Position numbers and translations under genes: made by a program
Assembly (NCBI GenBank): GCA_050952935.1
Contig: JBMNLS010000002.1
Span: forward strand, 646,988-710,987
Origin: Christensenellales bacterium
Lineage (GTDB): Bacteria > Bacillota > Clostridia > Christensenellales > Aristaeellaceae
Length of the DNA stretch: 64,000 nt
Direction of reading: 5' to 3'
Notes under the pieces: generated by a model
The model's input: the letters and a program-made list of their open reading frames with translations, nothing else
Told to the model about the DNA's origin: nothing
The model's database searches: none
Shown: positions 3,030 through 51,019 of the stretch, in pieces
How the letters are laid out: each line of letters starts with the position of its first letter
How positions within the stretch are numbered: the stretch's first letter is position 1

Positions 3030-4460
3030 TTAGAAGGGGCCAAGGCCCATCAGGTGAGCCGCCAAAAGCCATACCAGGCTGAGCAGCACCAGCAGGCCTT
3101 GCAGCGGCAGCGTCCAGCGGAGCCATTTGGGATAGCTGACGACGCTCAGCCCCAGCGCGATCATGAGGGCGGCGTTGGTGGGGTAGAGCAGGTTGCTGAA
3201 TCCATCGCCAAATAAATAGGCTTGAACCGCTACCTGGCGGTGGATGCCCAGGATATCTGTCAGTGGAAGCAGAATCGGCAGCATGAGAAAGGCCTTGGCG
3301 GAGCCTGAGCTGATGAAGAAATTCATCGCGAGCACCATGGCGTACAGCAGGAAAAGCCCGGCGATGGGGGATAGCCCCTGGAAGCGGCTGGCAGCCTGGT
3401 GAAGGAGATAGTCCATCACCAGGGAACGGGTCATGATCAGCTTGATGCTCATGGCCATCAAAATCAGCAGCACCGCCGGGGCAACGTCCGCCATGCCGCG
3501 CAAAAATGATTTGCCCGCGCCGCGAAAGCCCATCACCCCGCTTTTGACGACACTGAAGAAAGACAAGAGCACAAACAGGATGGCGATGAGGGGGAAAAGC
3601 AGGGAGGAAAGGGTGGGGATAAAAAAACTGGCAATCAAAAGGAGGGGCAGCAGCGCCAGCCCAATGCTGAAATAGACCAGGCCCCGGTCAAGGCGGGGAT
3701 CTTGGGCCAATGTTTCGGATGCTGCAAGGACCTGATCCTCCTGATAGACAGGGGAGAGGGCGGGGTTTTTCTCTATGCGTTTCACATATCGCAGCAGGAA
3801 AAGCTGCAGGATGGCATAGACGCTGATAAAAACCAGCGCCCGGAAGCCCAGCGCTGACCAGGCGGGAAGCTCCGCCAGCTGCTGTGCCACGCCTACGGTG
3901 AAGGGGTTGATGGTGGCGGCGCTAAAGCCAAGCCCTGAGGACAGGAGGCTGATGCCAAGGCCCGTCATGGAGTCCCATCCCATGCGCAGGGCCAGGGCAA
4001 TGCAAAAGGGCGCCATGATGATCAGCTCTTCAAAGATGCCAAAGACAGAGCCAAACAACATGAAAAACAGGCTGATCAGCATCAGCAGCAGATACCTTGC
4101 CCCCTGAAAGCGCTTGGTGATGCGCGCCATCAGCTGGGACACCATGCCGCAATCCAGCAGGACGGTGAAGCTGCCGCCAATCAGCAGCAGGAAAACAAGG
4201 ATGACGCTGACAACGCTGGCATCATCGGAGAGAAAAACCTCAATAGGGGCGGTGAGCGTGCGCCAGAGGGGAATCGGAGGCTTGTCCACCAGACGAAAGG
4301 TGCCAGGCAGGATTTTTTCGCGGCCGTCTTCCACCGCCCGCTCAAATGCGCCAGAGGGCAAGGCGTAGGACAGCACAGTGGCCAAAACCATCAGCCCCAG
4401 CAAGACGCTGAGGGACAGCATAAAAGAGCGTTTGCTGATTTTAATTGATTGCTGTTGCAT
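3030..4460 (-). CDS. YfcC/C4-dicarboxylate-anaerobic-carrier-type membrane transporter
   Basis: 476-aa polytopic protein whose N-terminus (ISKRSFMLS...LPSGAFER...) is typical of YfcC-family proteins; GGAGGA RBS. Confidence 0.65.
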   Translation of the reverse strand: MQQQSIKISKRSFMLSLSVLLGLMVLATVLSYALPSGAFERAVEDGREKILPGTFRLVDKPPIPLWRTLTAPIEVFLSDDASVVSVILVFLLLIGGSFTVLLDCGMVSQLMARITKRFQGARYLLLMLISLFFMLFGSVFGIFEELIIMAPFCIALALRMGWDSMTGLGISLLSSGLGFSAATINPFTVGVAQQLAELPAWSALGFRALVFISVYAILQLFLLRYVKRIEKNPALSPVYQEDQVLAASETLAQDPRLDRGLVYFSIGLALLPLLLIASFFIPTLSSLLFPLIAILFVLLSFFSVVKSGVMGFRGAGKSFLRGMADVAPAVLLILMAMSIKLIMTRSLVMDYLLHQAASRFQGLSPIAGLFLLYAMVLAMNFFISSGSAKAFLMLPILLPLTDILGIHRQVAVQAYLFGDGFSNLLYPTNAALMIALGLSVVSYPKWLRWTLPLQGLLVLLSLVWLLAAHLMGLGPF

Positions 4461-4473
4461 CGCTTTCCTCCTG

Positions 4474-5502
4474 CTATAACATTTCTATAGCATGGATCAG
4501 TTCCTGAAGATCCCCGTCGCTGGTGGCCCAGCTGGTGCAAAAGCGCACTGCCCACACTCCGGGTTCCATCTCCTGTATGCGGGAGAAGGCAAAATCCCTG
4601 GCAAGCGCTGTGATTTGCGCCTCATTCAGGATGGGGAACTGCTGGTTGCTGGGGGAATCGCACAGGAAGGGGATGCCCTTTGTGGTAAAAGCCAATTTAA
4701 TGCGCATAGCTTTTTCATTGGCCTGCCTGGCCAGGATGAGGTAAAGGCCATCTTTGAGAATCGCTTCAAACTGCAGCCCCATCAGGAAGCCCTTGGCCAG
4801 CATGCCGCCCCGCTGTTTGATGTGATAGCGGAAATCCTTTTGAAGGGCGGGGCTGGTGATCACCAGGGCCTCGCCGAACAGCAGGCCCTGCTTGGTGCCG
4901 CCGATGGTAAAAGCGTTGCAGCAGGATGCGATATCGGCAAAAGACATTCCCCCCGCTGCCATGGCATAGCCCAGCCGCGCGCCGTCCAGGTAAAGGGGAA
5001 GGTTCAGCTCCCGGCAGCAGGCGGACAGGGCTTTCAATTCCTTGATGGTGTATACGCTGCCCAGCTCCGTGGTGTTGGAGAGATAGACCATGCCGGGCTG
5101 AGGCGTGTGCTCCCGGGTGGGGTCAGCCCAGTGGCCCGCCACAAAGGTACGGATTTGCTCCGGCGTGATCTTGCCGTCTGTTTGCGGCAGGGCCAGCACC
5201 TTATGGCCGGTGGCCTCAATGGCGCCGGTCTCATGGGCATTGATATGCCCCGTATCAGCGCAGATGACCCCCTGGTGGGGGCGTAGCGCCGAGGCGATGA
5301 GGGTGAGGTTGGCCTGAGTGCCGCCGGAGAGATAATGAACAGCCGCGTCAGGCGCCCGGCACAATGCCCTGATCATATCAGCAGCCCTTTGGCAGGCCTT
5401 ATCCTCGCTGTAGCCGGGGAAGGTCTGCCCCTGGGCCTGGGCGATGGCCTCTATCACCGCCGGAGCGGCTGTTTGGTCATAGTCGTTCATGAAAGAGATC
5501 AT
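4474..5502 (-). CDS. Threonine aldolase / beta-eliminating lyase family PLP enzyme
   Basis: 342 aa with SGGTQANL and the GGTKQG PLP-lysine motif; GGAGGAGG RBS 10 nt upstream. Confidence 0.75.
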   Translation of the reverse strand: MISFMNDYDQTAAPAVIEAIAQAQGQTFPGYSEDKACQRAADMIRALCRAPDAAVHYLSGGTQANLTLIASALRPHQGVICADTGHINAHETGAIEATGHKVLALPQTDGKITPEQIRTFVAGHWADPTREHTPQPGMVYLSNTTELGSVYTIKELKALSACCRELNLPLYLDGARLGYAMAAGGMSFADIASCCNAFTIGGTKQGLLFGEALVITSPALQKDFRYHIKQRGGMLAKGFLMGLQFEAILKDGLYLILARQANEKAMRIKLAFTTKGIPFLCDSPSNQQFPILNEAQITALARDFAFSRIQEMEPGVWAVRFCTSWATSDGDLQELIHAIEML

Positions 5503-25378: not shown

Positions 25379-25674
25379 TTTTCAATGAAATCACAATACC
25401 GATTGTTGTTAATTGGTGTTCACTTGGACTGTATCTGAAAACCTGACAAACCTGACACATGTTCCGATTACTTTTAGCTTGACATCTATGTGCATTTGGC
25501 AAAGCAAATGAGAGAGGCACTCCTGCAATTTAGCATTTTTTCTGTAGAGGAATTTCTGATAATATGATATATAAGAGCCAAGATGAGTACAATGTGTTTC
25601 GTTGTATACTGTTGACACATATGAAAGATGAAGCAAATTAACTCAATACTATTTCGTTAAGGAGATTTTTGTTT

Positions 25675-26859
25675 ATGGTTAACATTGCAGATGAATTCAA
25701 TCAAATAGAATTAAAAACATTTAATTGCAAATCAGGAGAACGATACTTCGAACCCATTCGAAACATATTTCTTAGCATCACACCTGAAGAAACAGTTAGG
25801 CAGAAGATGTTAGTATTTCTTCAGAACAGAATGGGAGTCATGCCAAGCAGGATTTTTCCCGAGGACCATCTTGTTCATTATGCTGTTAATGATGCGAAGG
25901 GAAGAATTGATATTTCGTTGCTCAAAGAAGACAACACACCTCTTGCTGTGGTTGAGTGCAAGGAGCCAAAGATATTAATTCAAGCATTGCAGGTATATAA
26001 ACAAGCTGCAGATTATGCCTTCGCTGTCAATGCTGAGTACATTATTCTTGTGAATGGTGTAATGATACAGTTTTATAAGAAAGTGGACAATTCCTTTGTC
26101 CCGATTGATGGAATTATTTCATACAGTGAAATGGTCCAGGGAAAAGGAGTCACACTGGAAGATACAGAATTTCAACGTCTCAATTATGCACAGTACTACG
26201 ACCTTACGTTTTTGAGGAACCAGAAAAGGTATGATGATAAAATCGGAGCGGATACATCAGATGCGCTTATACCAGCAATCATTAATTTTGATGAATGTCT
26301 TTTTGATTACAGTCATCAGTTACACGGTCAACTGACCGATCAACTAGAGGTCATTGATGATCTTGGAGTAGGATGCCTAAATTATAATGACGCTTCGGGT
26401 GGAGGATTTGGGACAGGAGATTACCGGTTATTTCTGCTGAATGATCTTGAATGTAAGAAACAGTTCATGGCCGGCCTTGCGTTAATGCCGACAGGAAAAA
26501 CTGTAAATGATCCTAAATATGGCACTCGTGATGGATTGACCGTGTTAGCGGTTAGTATTAACGATGGAGACTTCAATGTAAAATCTTTACAAATAAATCT
26601 GAATAAGTTTTTAACTGTATCTGGAACAAAGATGAGTTTAGTTCATAATGGTGTAGTCACACGCAAGGGAGCAAGTAAGAAGGCTGTGCTGGAATACATC
26701 GGAAAGAAGAATCCCGGGTTAGTAAAAAATGGAAAGGTTGACTTGGGTAGCGCAGATATTTCAAGCAATTTGTTCATTGATAGTGATGATGTGAAGGATA
26801 TGATTGGCAGGATTATATCCTACGCAATGTATAGAAATGAGTATAAAAAAAGTCTATGA
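25675..26859 (+). CDS. Orphan protein: HsdR-N-like PD-(D/E)xK nuclease domain plus an uncharacterised C-terminal ~230 aa
   Basis: ITPEETVRQKM...GRIDISLLKEDNTPLAVVECKEP fits the D...E-x-K restriction-endonuclease-fold motif; AAGGAG RBS 10 nt before ATG 25675; AT-rich context. Confidence 0.55.
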   Translation: MVNIADEFNQIELKTFNCKSGERYFEPIRNIFLSITPEETVRQKMLVFLQNRMGVMPSRIFPEDHLVHYAVNDAKGRIDISLLKEDNTPLAVVECKEPKILIQALQVYKQAADYAFAVNAEYIILVNGVMIQFYKKVDNSFVPIDGIISYSEMVQGKGVTLEDTEFQRLNYAQYYDLTFLRNQKRYDDKIGADTSDALIPAIINFDECLFDYSHQLHGQLTDQLEVIDDLGVGCLNYNDASGGGFGTGDYRLFLLNDLECKKQFMAGLALMPTGKTVNDPKYGTRDGLTVLAVSINDGDFNVKSLQINLNKFLTVSGTKMSLVHNGVVTRKGASKKAVLEYIGKKNPGLVKNGKVDLGSADISSNLFIDSDDVKDMIGRIISYAMYRNEYKKSL

Positions 26860-26882
26860 TAGAGTTTAGAATATAGATTGGC

Positions 26883-26891
26883 TTCGGCTAT
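26883..26891. repeat. Target-site duplication (left copy) of the IS
   Basis: ttcggctat, identical to 28502-28510. Confidence 0.75.
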
Positions 26892-28501
26892 CTTGAGTTT
26901 CCGTATTCTGATTATACTTTTTGATTGAGCTGCAGGTGGTTCAGGGGTTTTGAGGAAGTCACTGTCAAATCATGTCTTTTTTGTCAATATTCTGGCATAT
27001 TTATGACGGAAAATGAGGAACCTTTCCTGTTTTTCATAGTAGAATTGATTTGTAACAAAAACTCGACTAAACAAATCCAGGGAGGCTCCTCATGCGTTAT
27101 TCTACCACAGATACCTATCAACTCAAAAGGGAAATCATCACCTTCGCCAGGCGTCTGAGTGAAGGCCTCCCACGGGATTGGGAAAAGTTTACCGCTGATA
27201 TGCTTTTCGGCATCCTCGCGTCCAGCAGCTGCATTCTTTCCCGCTTTGCCGATGTGCTCAAAGAAGATATCTTGAAAAAGAACACCGTTGAACGCTTGGC
27301 ACGAAAGCTGTTAGAAGATATGCCCCCCGAACTCACCCATCATTACCTGTCCTTTGCCCGGAACATCGCGCAGGACACGGGGCCTGTCTTTGTGGATGAT
27401 ACGGACATCACCAAGCCCTATGGCAAAGCCTTTGAGGATATGGGAACGGTCAGAGATGGCTCTTCGGCAGATAAAAAGCTGAAGAATGGGTATTATGTGA
27501 CTGAAATGACTGCCCTGAGCCATCGTACCCGTCAGCCTATCAGCCTCTATTCCCATATCCATTCCTCTCACTCAAAAAACTATACCTCTGTCAACGACAT
27601 CACCTTCCGGGCATTGAAAGAAGTTTTCCCTTATTTCCCCAAAGCAACCTATGTCTTTGACCGGGGTTATGATATGAACAAGCTATATCTTTTCATGTAC
27701 GAGCATGAAAAGAGCTTCATCGTTCGTGTCACCAGCAACAGAAATCTGTTCTGTAAAAACAAGTGGTTCAAGTCGACCACGCTCAGGGACAAATACAAAG
27801 GCAAGTTTAAGTGCCCGGTCTTATATGGCGGCAAAAAGACTGAATGCTGGGTCACCTGTGTCAATGTCAAGATCACCGCGAGCTGCAAATGGCTCAAGTT
27901 AGTATTGGTATATGGGCTGTCAGATACCCCCATGATGCTGTTGACCAACCGCCCGGTCAGAAACAGGGAGGACGCGCTGCAGGTTGTCCGGATGTATTTC
28001 ATGCGGTGGCGGATAGAGGAACATTTCCGCTTCAAGAAGACGACCCTGGGGTTTGAGGATATGCGGGTGCGCAAGCTGAAGGCAATGAATCACTTGAGTC
28101 AGTTTGTGAGCATGGCCATTGGCTTTTTGTGCGCACAGGCAGACAAAAGAAACACCTCCAGGCTCAGGCGCGCCGTGACGCGCGAGGCAAATGGACAGAA
28201 GCAGGAGCACAAAATATCCTTTCTGCTTTATAGAATGGGGTTGGGTATCCAGCGCATTCTGGCCAGGGCACAAACAGGCATCCGTGCCTGGTTCCGCATA
28301 GGCCGGCCCAAATACAGGCAGTTATCCTTCCCTTTGCTATGTTGAAATACAACAACTGAATAGGCGCGCGCAAGGGCTTGTTTACCTTCCCTTTTTTTGG
28401 AAAATTCGCTCTGTAAAATGAAATACCGCATCCTCTACCATGCAGAGGCTCAAGAATCTCTGCTCATTGCACCAGAAGATTGCAAAATACGGAAACTCAA
28501 A
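26892..28501 (+). mobile_element. IS4-superfamily insertion sequence, apparently intact
   Basis: Terminal inverted repeats ttgagtttccgtatt (26893-26907) and aatacggaaactcaa (28486-28500), single DDE transposase, 9-bp flanking direct repeat. Confidence 0.8.
27092..28345 (+). CDS. DDE transposase, IS4 family
   Basis: FVFDRGYD (second D region) and YFMRWRIEEHFRFKK, which is the Y(2)R(3)E(6)K signature. Confidence 0.8.
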   Translation: MRYSTTDTYQLKREIITFARRLSEGLPRDWEKFTADMLFGILASSSCILSRFADVLKEDILKKNTVERLARKLLEDMPPELTHHYLSFARNIAQDTGPVFVDDTDITKPYGKAFEDMGTVRDGSSADKKLKNGYYVTEMTALSHRTRQPISLYSHIHSSHSKNYTSVNDITFRALKEVFPYFPKATYVFDRGYDMNKLYLFMYEHEKSFIVRVTSNRNLFCKNKWFKSTTLRDKYKGKFKCPVLYGGKKTECWVTCVNVKITASCKWLKLVLVYGLSDTPMMLLTNRPVRNREDALQVVRMYFMRWRIEEHFRFKKTTLGFEDMRVRKLKAMNHLSQFVSMAIGFLCAQADKRNTSRLRRAVTREANGQKQEHKISFLLYRMGLGIQRILARAQTGIRAWFRIGRPKYRQLSFPLLC

Positions 28502-28510
28502 TTCGGCTAT
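28502..28510. repeat. Target-site duplication (right copy) of the IS
   Basis: ttcggctat. Confidence 0.75.
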
Positions 28511-28680
28511 TTGTAGGAAAGGAAGAGAGAATGTTATAAAATTATCATTTTAGTAATGATAATTGTGTTAATTTAAGGCGAATAAATTTGATGGCGGGTT
28601 TGGCAGGATTCCCAAAACGATATTTTTTGTCAGTAATGTTGTTAGTAGAACGTCATTTTCTGCCACTTCTCGCCGCAAAC

Positions 28681-28716
28681 AGAAAAGTGAGAGCCGTTGA
28701 AAACTCTCACTTTTCT
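28681..28716 (-). terminator. Hairpin abutting the displaced tRNA-Pro 3' fragment (probable native tRNA terminator)
   Basis: agaaaagtgagag / ctctcacttttct perfect 13-bp stem, immediately downstream (minus strand) of the partial tRNA copy. Confidence 0.6.
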
Positions 28717-28762
28717 TGGTCGAGGTGACAGGATTTGAACCTGCGACCTTTTGGTCCCGAAC
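28717..28762 (-). repeat. attL-type direct repeat: displaced 3' 46 nt of tRNA-Pro
   Basis: 46/46 identity with 50943-50988. Confidence 0.9.
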
Positions 28763-50942: not shown

Positions 50943-50988
50943 TGGTCGAGGTGACAGGATTTGAACCTGCGACCTTTTGGTCCCGAAC
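50943..50988 (-). repeat. attR-type direct repeat (inside the intact tRNA-Pro)
   Basis: 46/46 identity with 28717-28762. Confidence 0.9.
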
Positions 50989-51019
50989 CAAACGCGCTAC
51001 CAAACTGCGCTACACCTCG
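50943..51019 (-). tRNA. tRNA-Pro (anticodon CGG)
   Basis: Hand-folded cloverleaf: acceptor CGAGGTG/CACCTCG, D stem GCGC/GCGC, anticodon stem TTTGG/CCAAA with loop TTCGGGA, T arm GCAGG-TTCAAAT-CCTGT, encoded CCA. Confidence 0.9.

Follow-up and report, generated by a model that had tools for sequence, protein, structure and literature searches.

PvuRts1I/AbaSI, MspJI and Mrr are two-domain modification-dependent (type IV) restriction enzymes, in which a nuclease is combined with a reader domain. The QxxxY nuclease motif was first analysed in the HsdR subunit of the type I enzyme EcoR124I, where it matters for cleavage (PMC2475608). Here we describe a gene located in a window of 64,000 nucleotides (the whole stretch of DNA that was analysed, positions 646,988 to 710,987 of contig JBMNLS010000002.1, assembly GCA_050952935.1) from a Christensenellales bacterium. 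The gene occupies positions 25675..26859 of the + strand of the window, stop codon included, and its translation is a 394-amino-acid (aa) protein (P0001) in which an HSDR_N_2 nuclease head is joined to a C-terminal domain (C-domain) of its own kind. The protein belongs to a large, uncharacterised and widespread family of two-domain nucleases with a structurally unmatched C-domain, and it is a plausible candidate for a single-gene anti-phage defence nuclease. In the literature we found generic annotations only, and nothing on this two-domain nuclease family or on its pairing with the partner protein described below.

Comparison with the closest described systems shows what the protein shares with each of them and where it departs. 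With type I HsdR (EcoR124I) it has in common the Pfam family HSDR_N/HSDR_N_2 and the motifs D, ExK and QxxxY; it differs in lacking the superfamily 2 (SF2) helicase/translocase motor and linked hsdM or hsdS genes, and in being only 394 aa long with an unrelated C-domain. Lacking both the motor and HsdM/HsdS, it cannot serve as the R subunit of a type I enzyme. In structure, the N-terminal domain (N-domain) is best matched by the endonuclease domains of type IIB, IIG and IIL enzymes (BsaXI, 8w2p; DrdV, 7lo5; MmeI-like enzymes). However, in those enzymes the head is part of one chain or complex together with a methyltransferase and a target-recognition domain, whereas the window protein has neither, and the absence of a fused or linked methyltransferase therefore excludes it as a type II, IIG or IIB enzyme. 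The likeness to type IV enzymes is one of architecture (a single polypeptide with a PD-(D/E)xK-type nuclease and a second domain, no methyltransferase and an accessory distribution) and of context, with relatives of the window protein adjoining GmrSD and Mrr. In contrast to the known type IV enzymes, the C-domain is not an SRA, EVE/PUA, winged-helix, SBD, NEco, Mrr-N or DUF262 domain and is not basic; as no reader domain can be recognised, the protein cannot be assigned to any of the known type IV enzymes. Finally, mad2 of the MADS system (PADLOC PDLC04134) has the HSDR_N_2 head in common with the window protein (E=1.5e-6 over aa 38-153), but of the 492 profile positions only 5-117 are matched, the remainder of mad2 bears no relation to the C-domain, and no MADS genes are present at this locus. 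The MADS genes mad3, mad5 and mad8 do occur near a few other family members.

Results

The N-terminal domain is a conserved HSDR_N_2 nuclease head

The open reading frame is intact. A ribosome-binding site, AAGGAG, can be read 8 nt 5′ of the ATG (25660..25665, + strand), the ATG at 25675 agrees with the N-termini of the homologues, and these align with the protein from end to end. Pfam searches identified PF13588 (HSDR_N_2) at aa 37-145 (25783..26109, + strand) with E=8.3e-17 and 61.7 bits, against a gathering cut-off of 25, and a weak local match to HSDR_N (PF04313) over the same stretch. Matches to longer models were likewise restricted to the head: the NCBIfam model of the EcoAI R subunit reached 20 bits, against a cut-off of 550, and the PADLOC matches were local ones, relating the N-domain to the N-termini of the MTase_I and MTase_II models and to mad2. 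An AlphaFold2 model of the whole protein, built from a 48-sequence alignment, had a pLDDT of 92.8 and a pTM of 0.86. When this model was compared with the PDB using Foldseek, the N-domain alone was matched, the best hits being the endonuclease domains of BsaXI (type IIB, E=4.5e-5) and DrdV (type IIL).

Conservation was counted on 356 unique full-length sequences. Residues E39, E63 and D79 were kept in all 356 members, and E38, R42, R77, E94, K96, Q110 and Y114 in 355 of them. The core motifs, all within 25783..26109, read E38-E39-x-x-R42-Q43, E63, R77-x-D79, E94-C-K96 and Q110-x-x-x-Y114. They include, in invariant alignment columns, the codons of the catalytic triad at 25909..25962 (D79, 25909-25911; E94, 25954-25956; K96, 25960-25962) and, at 26002..26016, the QxxxY motif of RecB-family nucleases (355/356), all on the + strand. 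On every sequence and fold criterion the N-terminal domain is a bona fide HSDR_N_2 nuclease domain, and the retention of these residues predicts that the protein would cleave DNA in a metal-dependent manner. The initial annotation, which was made from the letters of the window alone, had already proposed the 394-aa reading frame and a restriction-endonuclease fold for its N-domain, and had offered conservation of the active-site residues as a test of its own proposal; with 355-356 of 356 members retaining them, the outcome of that test is in its favour.

The C-terminal domain has no known counterpart and forms a fixed unit with the head

The head is followed by an acidic, mostly helical inter-domain region (aa 146-214; 26110..26316, + strand), delimited by model secondary structure and charge, and then by a beta-rich C-terminal core with a long terminal helix (aa 215-394; 26317..26856, + strand), delimited by predicted structure and conservation. 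When the C-domain was modelled in isolation from a 61-sequence alignment (pLDDT 94.3, pTM 0.89), the layout was an acidic helical N-terminal part, a long antiparallel beta-meander and a terminal helix of 23 residues. Across the family, the median net charge is -8 for the linker and -1, about neutral, for the core.

Residues 146-394 gave no match in Pfam, NCBIfam, PADLOC, PHROGs or the PDB sequences, whether the query was one sequence or a profile of 61 sequences, and the profile search of the PDB with the C-domain returned 0 matches. Foldseek found no significant structural neighbour either (best E=0.37 in the PDB and 0.16 in BFVD, with template-modelling scores below 0.3), so that assignment of the C-domain to a known reader, sensor or enzyme fold is unsupported. 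Weak matches of ~55 residues to kinase N-lobes and to RanBP1/PH-like folds were not significant. The idea that the C-domain is a hidden duplicate of the nuclease domain was ruled out by an hhalign probability of 0.4%. Thus, a domain that had been called unrecognisable from the letters is equally so by sequence and by fold in PDB and BFVD.

A search with the C-domain profile recovered 396 proteins, and the best 120 of these 396 were all ~400 aa long and carried PF13588, which shows that nuclease head and C-domain are one fixed two-domain unit. The C-domain core carries a glycine-rich hairpin, SGGGFGTGDYR, that includes G242/G243, and several of its residues are near-invariant among the 356 members: D229 (348), Y250 (340), R251 (350), H324 (352), G358 (354), Y383 (353) and R387 (352). 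Judged from the alignment, this near-invariant polar set shows that the C-domain is under selection for a specific site, beyond stability alone.

The hairpin segment GGGFGTGDYRL (aa 242-252, window 26398-26430) gave many weak Foldseek matches (~55 residues, E>1) to the nucleotide-binding hairpin of the kinase N-lobe. These matches, which are not significant, are a hint that the hairpin may bind a phosphate-bearing ligand.

The family is large and patchily distributed

The protein had been described as an orphan, and this description does not hold. A word-indexed search returned 75 full-length homologues with 28-60% identity, and when 1.84 billion cluster representatives were searched exhaustively with HMMER, 93 clusters were found at E<=1e-30 and 373 at E<=1e-10; the 356 unique full-length sequences used above belong to this family. 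Members come mainly from gut and rumen Clostridia, and also from Negativicutes, Bacilli, Flavobacteriia/Bacteroidota and one Eggerthellaceae metagenome-assembled genome. The distribution is patchy across phyla and the maximum-likelihood tree of the family is discordant with taxonomy.

In about 5% of the members, an array of TPR, Sel1 or ankyrin repeats extends the protein at its N- or C-terminus. In P0111, P0121 and P0141 (TPR), P0175 and P0120 (Sel1) and P0215 (ankyrin) the repeats are attached to the complete two-domain unit, and such long arrays suggest added protein-sensing modules. Another member of 636 aa (P0083) has the full nuclease unit fused to a DnaJ C-terminal/zinc-finger region; this fusion may be real, or it may be an artefact of gene calling or assembly involving a neighbouring dnaJ.

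Relatives occur in defence islands, in prophages and between core genes

Immediate neighbours of family members were collected at 60-odd independent loci. The 108 neighbours fell into 92 Pfam families, each seen at most three times, and ranged over ribosomal protein S9, a PCRF-domain (peptide chain release factor) protein, McrBC, Macro, WYL, an AbiEii-type AAA_21 protein, YgjP and phage tail proteins. No methyltransferase recurred among these 108 neighbours, and no repair gene was conserved as a neighbour across the family. About 12-17 of the 108 matched PADLOC models at E<=1e-10.

Some of the closer relatives lie among defence genes. P0011 (55% identity), which stands without the partner described below, has a type IIG methyltransferase/Eco57I gene, T5orf172-ResIII and GmrSD on one side, and HsdM, an HsdS shufflon and an integrase on the other. 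P0014 adjoins Mrr_cat and an HsdS fragment, P0005 has WYL/WCX, TnpB and AbiEii nearby, and P0022 lies ~5.5 kb from BrxL. Two other relatives are placed between core genes: P0012 is flanked by a tRNA methyltransferase and a transporter, and P0059 by smpB and the pyr genes. The island around P0011 (L200:1-12904) reads, in order, MmeI-type methyltransferase/Eco57I, T5orf172-ResIII, GmrSD, the nuclease, a 190-aa protein, HsdM, two inverted HsdS genes and a phage-type integrase.

The association with mobile elements is of several kinds. Five distant members adjoin prophage tape-measure genes, ~20 full-length members are found in IMG/VR viral contigs, one member lies inside a serine-recombinase element, and another, with IS5, a toprim protein and VirB4 as neighbours, is carried by a Hymenobacter plasmid that is mobilizable (relaxase MOBB). 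Insertion sequences (IS) often flank members, the window gene included. The 50,697 curated phage genomes gave 0 full-length matches and PHROGs gave no match, and plasmids gave only 2 full-length matches, one of them on a 5.5-Mb replicon. In the prophage cases (L022:10001-14628; L042, with the same layout; L044; L056; L064) the gene sits in the tail module, immediately before the tape-measure gene (PhageMin_Tail) and DUF6711, in a moron-like position.

A partner gene accompanies the nuclease in the clade of the window protein

In the maximum-likelihood tree, the window protein falls inside a clade of ten, supported at 100/99, that contains all the members linked to a second gene. This partner encodes a ~760-aa protein with a ScoMcrA_N-like head, a DUF7255/DUF559 (Vsr-like) region and a CN-hydrolase domain. 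It adjoins the nuclease in 9 of the 13 assessable lineages of the clade (38-60% identity to the window protein), three further lineages that end at contig edges having been left out of the count. The partner lies upstream with a gap of 13-16 bp in P0004, P0005, P0009 and P0010, and downstream in P0014, P0022, L009, L010 and L012; in the sister of the window protein (L002) it is 15 bp upstream. Order and spacing vary, and the gap can reach 1.4 kb with unrelated genes in between. The solo members of the clade are the window protein, P0011, P0012 and P0059. Outside the clade, the partner was present at 0 of ~60 loci. All the solo loci, the ~60 outside the clade and the 4 inside it, keep the conserved residues of the nuclease.

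The reciprocal test gave a nuclease at only 4 of ~53 partner loci, with neighbourhoods as variable as those of the nuclease, and this weakened the case for a strict two-gene system. We conclude that the pairing is real but facultative, and limited to the clade of the window protein. The clade-specific pairing of such a nuclease with a ScoMcrA_N/Vsr-like/CN-hydrolase protein is, as far as the literature cited above goes, new here.

The defence systems DRT type 1/UG1 and UG5 cannot work without their nitrilase (C-N hydrolase) domains (PMC9226505). It is the partner of the clade, and not the window gene, that resembles these systems, both having a defence-type protein with a CN-hydrolase domain and an intact catalytic triad; in the alignment of the partner, the Glu-Lys-Cys triad of the nitrilase superfamily is invariant (E363, K434, C472). 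The partner differs from DRT1/UG1 and UG5 in having no reverse transcriptase, with ScoMcrA_N-like and Vsr/DUF559-like domains instead. It had no match in PADLOC. At the window locus, tblastn found no match to the partner within the window, and relaxed tblastn of the flanks gave nothing above chance; none was found elsewhere in the 2.68-Mb genome (~92% complete), which makes its absence very likely.

Genes of the partner family were located at L002:5709-7982, L009:5235-7496, L010:7581-9890, L202:2381-4687 and L203:127-2418. The ~53 partner homologues come from Clostridia, Negativicutes, Bacteroidales, Treponema, Akkermansia and Methanobrevibacter, mostly as solo genes in variable neighbourhoods, and the partner family is a candidate defence gene in its own right. 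In the P0022 lineage (L003:1770-4689) the partner is split by an IS (rve integrase, 3209-4084) and its C-terminal piece resumes at 4324-4689; ~5.5-7 kb beyond this split partner lie BrxL and DUF786x genes, possibly BREX-related.

The window gene is a foreign, accessory gene beside a tRNA-Pro integration site

The nuclease gene has a G+C content of 38.1% (35% at third codon positions), against 56.7% (70%) for the AKR-ferredoxin gene upstream. Synteny with G010, the closest of the relatives with an AKR gene (86% nucleotide identity by blastn), stops at ~25409, 30 bp past the AKR gene and within the AT-rich intergenic DNA at 25379..25674, in which no remnant of the partner was seen. No clean empty site could be shown, G010 having different DNA past the AKR gene and no tRNA-Pro within 9 kb. 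The nuclease gene was absent from 23 same-genus species representatives and from 17 more distant relatives (present in 1 of 41 genomes), and it is the sole HSDR_N_2 gene of its genome. The flanking genes encode transketolase, the AKR protein, an IS transposase, AraC and an FGGY kinase, with no methyltransferase, helicase or specificity gene among them; the three N6_Mtase matches of the genome are all on another contig (C1, the window being on C2).

An IS4-family insertion sequence (26892..28501, + strand; DDE_Tnp_1 transposase open reading frame 27092-28345) begins 32 bp past the stop codon. Its inverted repeats, 15 bp each, span 26893-26907 and 28486-28500, the 9-bp target sequence TTCGGCTAT is duplicated, and the element is a simple insertion into intergenic DNA in which no gene was interrupted. 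The possibility that the IS destroyed a downstream partner gene was ruled out by this clean insertion with its 9-bp duplication and by the lack of a partner remnant in either flank. Further downstream, a displaced 3′ end of tRNA-Pro(CGG), 46 nt long (28717..28762, - strand), is a second copy of the 3′ end of the intact tRNA (50943-51019); the two are identical over the 46 nt, and exact 40-nt words, the longest tested, match throughout. The segment 28717-28762 is an attachment-site (att) copy bounding a 22-kb island (28763-50942, 37.8% G+C) integrated into tRNA-Pro. Without the IS and the island, the nuclease gene would end ~250 bp from the tRNA, the two being in convergent orientation. No other att copy was found at the bounds of the AT-rich segment, the best local alignment scoring below the shuffle mean.

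Taken together, the gene is foreign, accessory and horizontally acquired, in a variable spot by the tRNA-Pro integration site. That it is not a housekeeping gene is borne out by its absence from 40 relatives and by the end of synteny 30 bp past the AKR gene. The initial annotation had likewise noted the AT-rich DNA, an IS close downstream, a displaced tRNA end and the lack of a methyltransferase, helicase or specificity gene nearby. Its remark that the gene stands alone is correct for the window locus and wrong for the clade, which usually has the partner (9/13).

The AT-rich nuclease segment (25410-26891 and 28502-28716, 37% G+C) matches the island 28763-50942 in composition and lies outside the att copy and the native terminator hairpin of the tRNA. 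Segment and island may come from a common donor pool, or the segment may stem from an older, decayed integration. In two other genomes of the genus (loci L159 and L162), the sequences that match the AKR-ferredoxin gene contain one in-frame stop each, a TAG in G022:C88:3686-4861 (87% identity) and a TGA in G017:C15:13938-15113 (40% identity, possibly a paralogue), and may be pseudogenes or sequencing errors.

Discussion

The reading that we favour, and to which we would give an even chance, is that the window protein is an autonomous DNA endonuclease, restriction-like or of the abortive-infection kind, controlled by a novel C-terminal domain. The N-terminal 145 aa would be a metal-dependent cutting head, a module common to type I, IIB, IIG and IIL enzymes, which the acidic helical linker would join permanently to a family-specific C-domain with a conserved polar pocket and a glycine-rich hairpin. 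Since there is no methyltransferase to protect the host DNA, we infer that the C-domain controls cutting, deciding when or on what the head would cut. It might recognise a feature of foreign DNA, as in type IV-like restriction, or sense an infection-derived ligand or protein and so free the nuclease, as in abortive infection. Of the two, sensing is slightly favoured over DNA reading by the repeat-domain fusions and by a C-domain that is not basic. The gene would have arrived by horizontal transfer from low-GC Firmicutes, and the window nuclease, if active, would act without the usual partner of its clade. Two further observations count for this reading: with 0 full-length matches in the curated phage genomes, the gene belongs to the host rather than to phage, and the solo loci, in keeping all the conserved residues, speak for autonomy.

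Several results weigh against it. No PADLOC-DB v2 defence model is matched over its full length. The neighbours of the family are very heterogeneous and include plain housekeeping genes, and a control set taken ~7 kb away also has defence genes (type I S subunits, MADS), the output being swamped by redundant S-subunit models. A neutral core with an acidic linker is unlike a classical DNA reader, and the type IV-like version of the mechanism has no positive support. Lastly, since 9 of 13 assessable lineages of the clade have the partner adjacent, the solo window copy could be incomplete.

This last point leads to an alternative in which the nuclease is half of a two-gene system, the ~760-aa partner sensing or processing a DNA feature that the nuclease cleaves, and the window copy is an orphaned remnant, silent, unregulated or decaying. 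The position of the window protein in the 100/99 clade with all the partner-linked members, the partner 15 bp upstream in its sister, linkage in 9 of 13 lineages inside the clade against 0 of ~60 loci outside it, and gaps down to 13-16 bp all point this way, as do the invariant E363, K434 and C472 of the partner, the essential nitrilase domains of DRT1/UG1 and UG5 (PMC9226505) and the absence of the partner from both window and genome. However, a nuclease at only 4 of ~53 partner loci and a family that mostly lacks the partner indicate that both proteins can stand alone, and a variable order with spacing up to 1.4 kb fits loose linkage better than a strict complex. Moreover, the window reading frame is intact with every conserved residue present, and solo members of the clade lie in defence islands that look active. 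On balance we consider the remnant explanation unlikely. The proposal of a single-gene defence candidate in the initial annotation thus survives in part: several close relatives do lie in defence islands, but the clade is usually paired, which leaves it as one of two live readings.

A role in the service of mobile elements (prophages, integrative and conjugative elements or plasmids), in superinfection exclusion, degradation of competitor DNA, addiction or DNA processing, with the gene having arrived as a fragment of such an element, has in our estimate only a small chance of being correct. It would account for the distant members in prophage tail modules by the tape-measure gene, the ~20 full-length members in IMG/VR contigs, the members in a serine-recombinase element and on the mobilizable Hymenobacter plasmid, and the IS elements that often flank members, the window gene too. 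Against this stand the lack of any full-length match among the 50,697 curated phage genomes or in PHROGs, the mere 2 full-length plasmid matches, one on a 5.5-Mb replicon, and a window locus with no recombinase, no bounding att copy and no other element genes; prophage exclusion would itself be a defence function and so overlaps with the autonomous nuclease that we favour. Least probable of all, and disfavoured by us, is a function in housekeeping or in repair/recombination (end processing, as by RecB/Cas4) that has nothing to do with conflict with foreign DNA. The QxxxY motif is common to RecB-family repair nucleases and P0012 and P0059 do lie between core genes, but neither the 23 species of the genus nor the 17 more distant relatives have the gene, its composition is foreign, the family is patchy across phyla with a tree discordant with taxonomy, and no repair-gene neighbours are conserved.

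Within the reading of an autonomous, C-domain-controlled nuclease, a more far-reaching version can be put forward tentatively, although we hold it doubtful. The C-domain would be an unseen sensor fold whose Asp-Arg-His-Tyr-Arg pocket and hairpin bind a small molecule, nucleotide or phage product and thereby release the nuclease; the family would then represent a new anti-phage system, made of a single protein and widespread in gut Firmicutes and Bacteroidota, and one of its clades would have become coupled to a nitrilase-fold ScoMcrA_N protein as a new two-gene restriction-like system.

A restriction-type nuclease without a methyltransferase must be restrained by something, and here that would be a previously undescribed domain. 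If the gene serves defence, it would add a compact system of one protein, with a new fold for regulation or recognition, and its pairing with a CN-hydrolase protein could illuminate the part played by nitrilase domains in immunity, as in DRT1/UG5. If it does not, the family is still a strongly selected, unexplained nuclease that moves between phyla.

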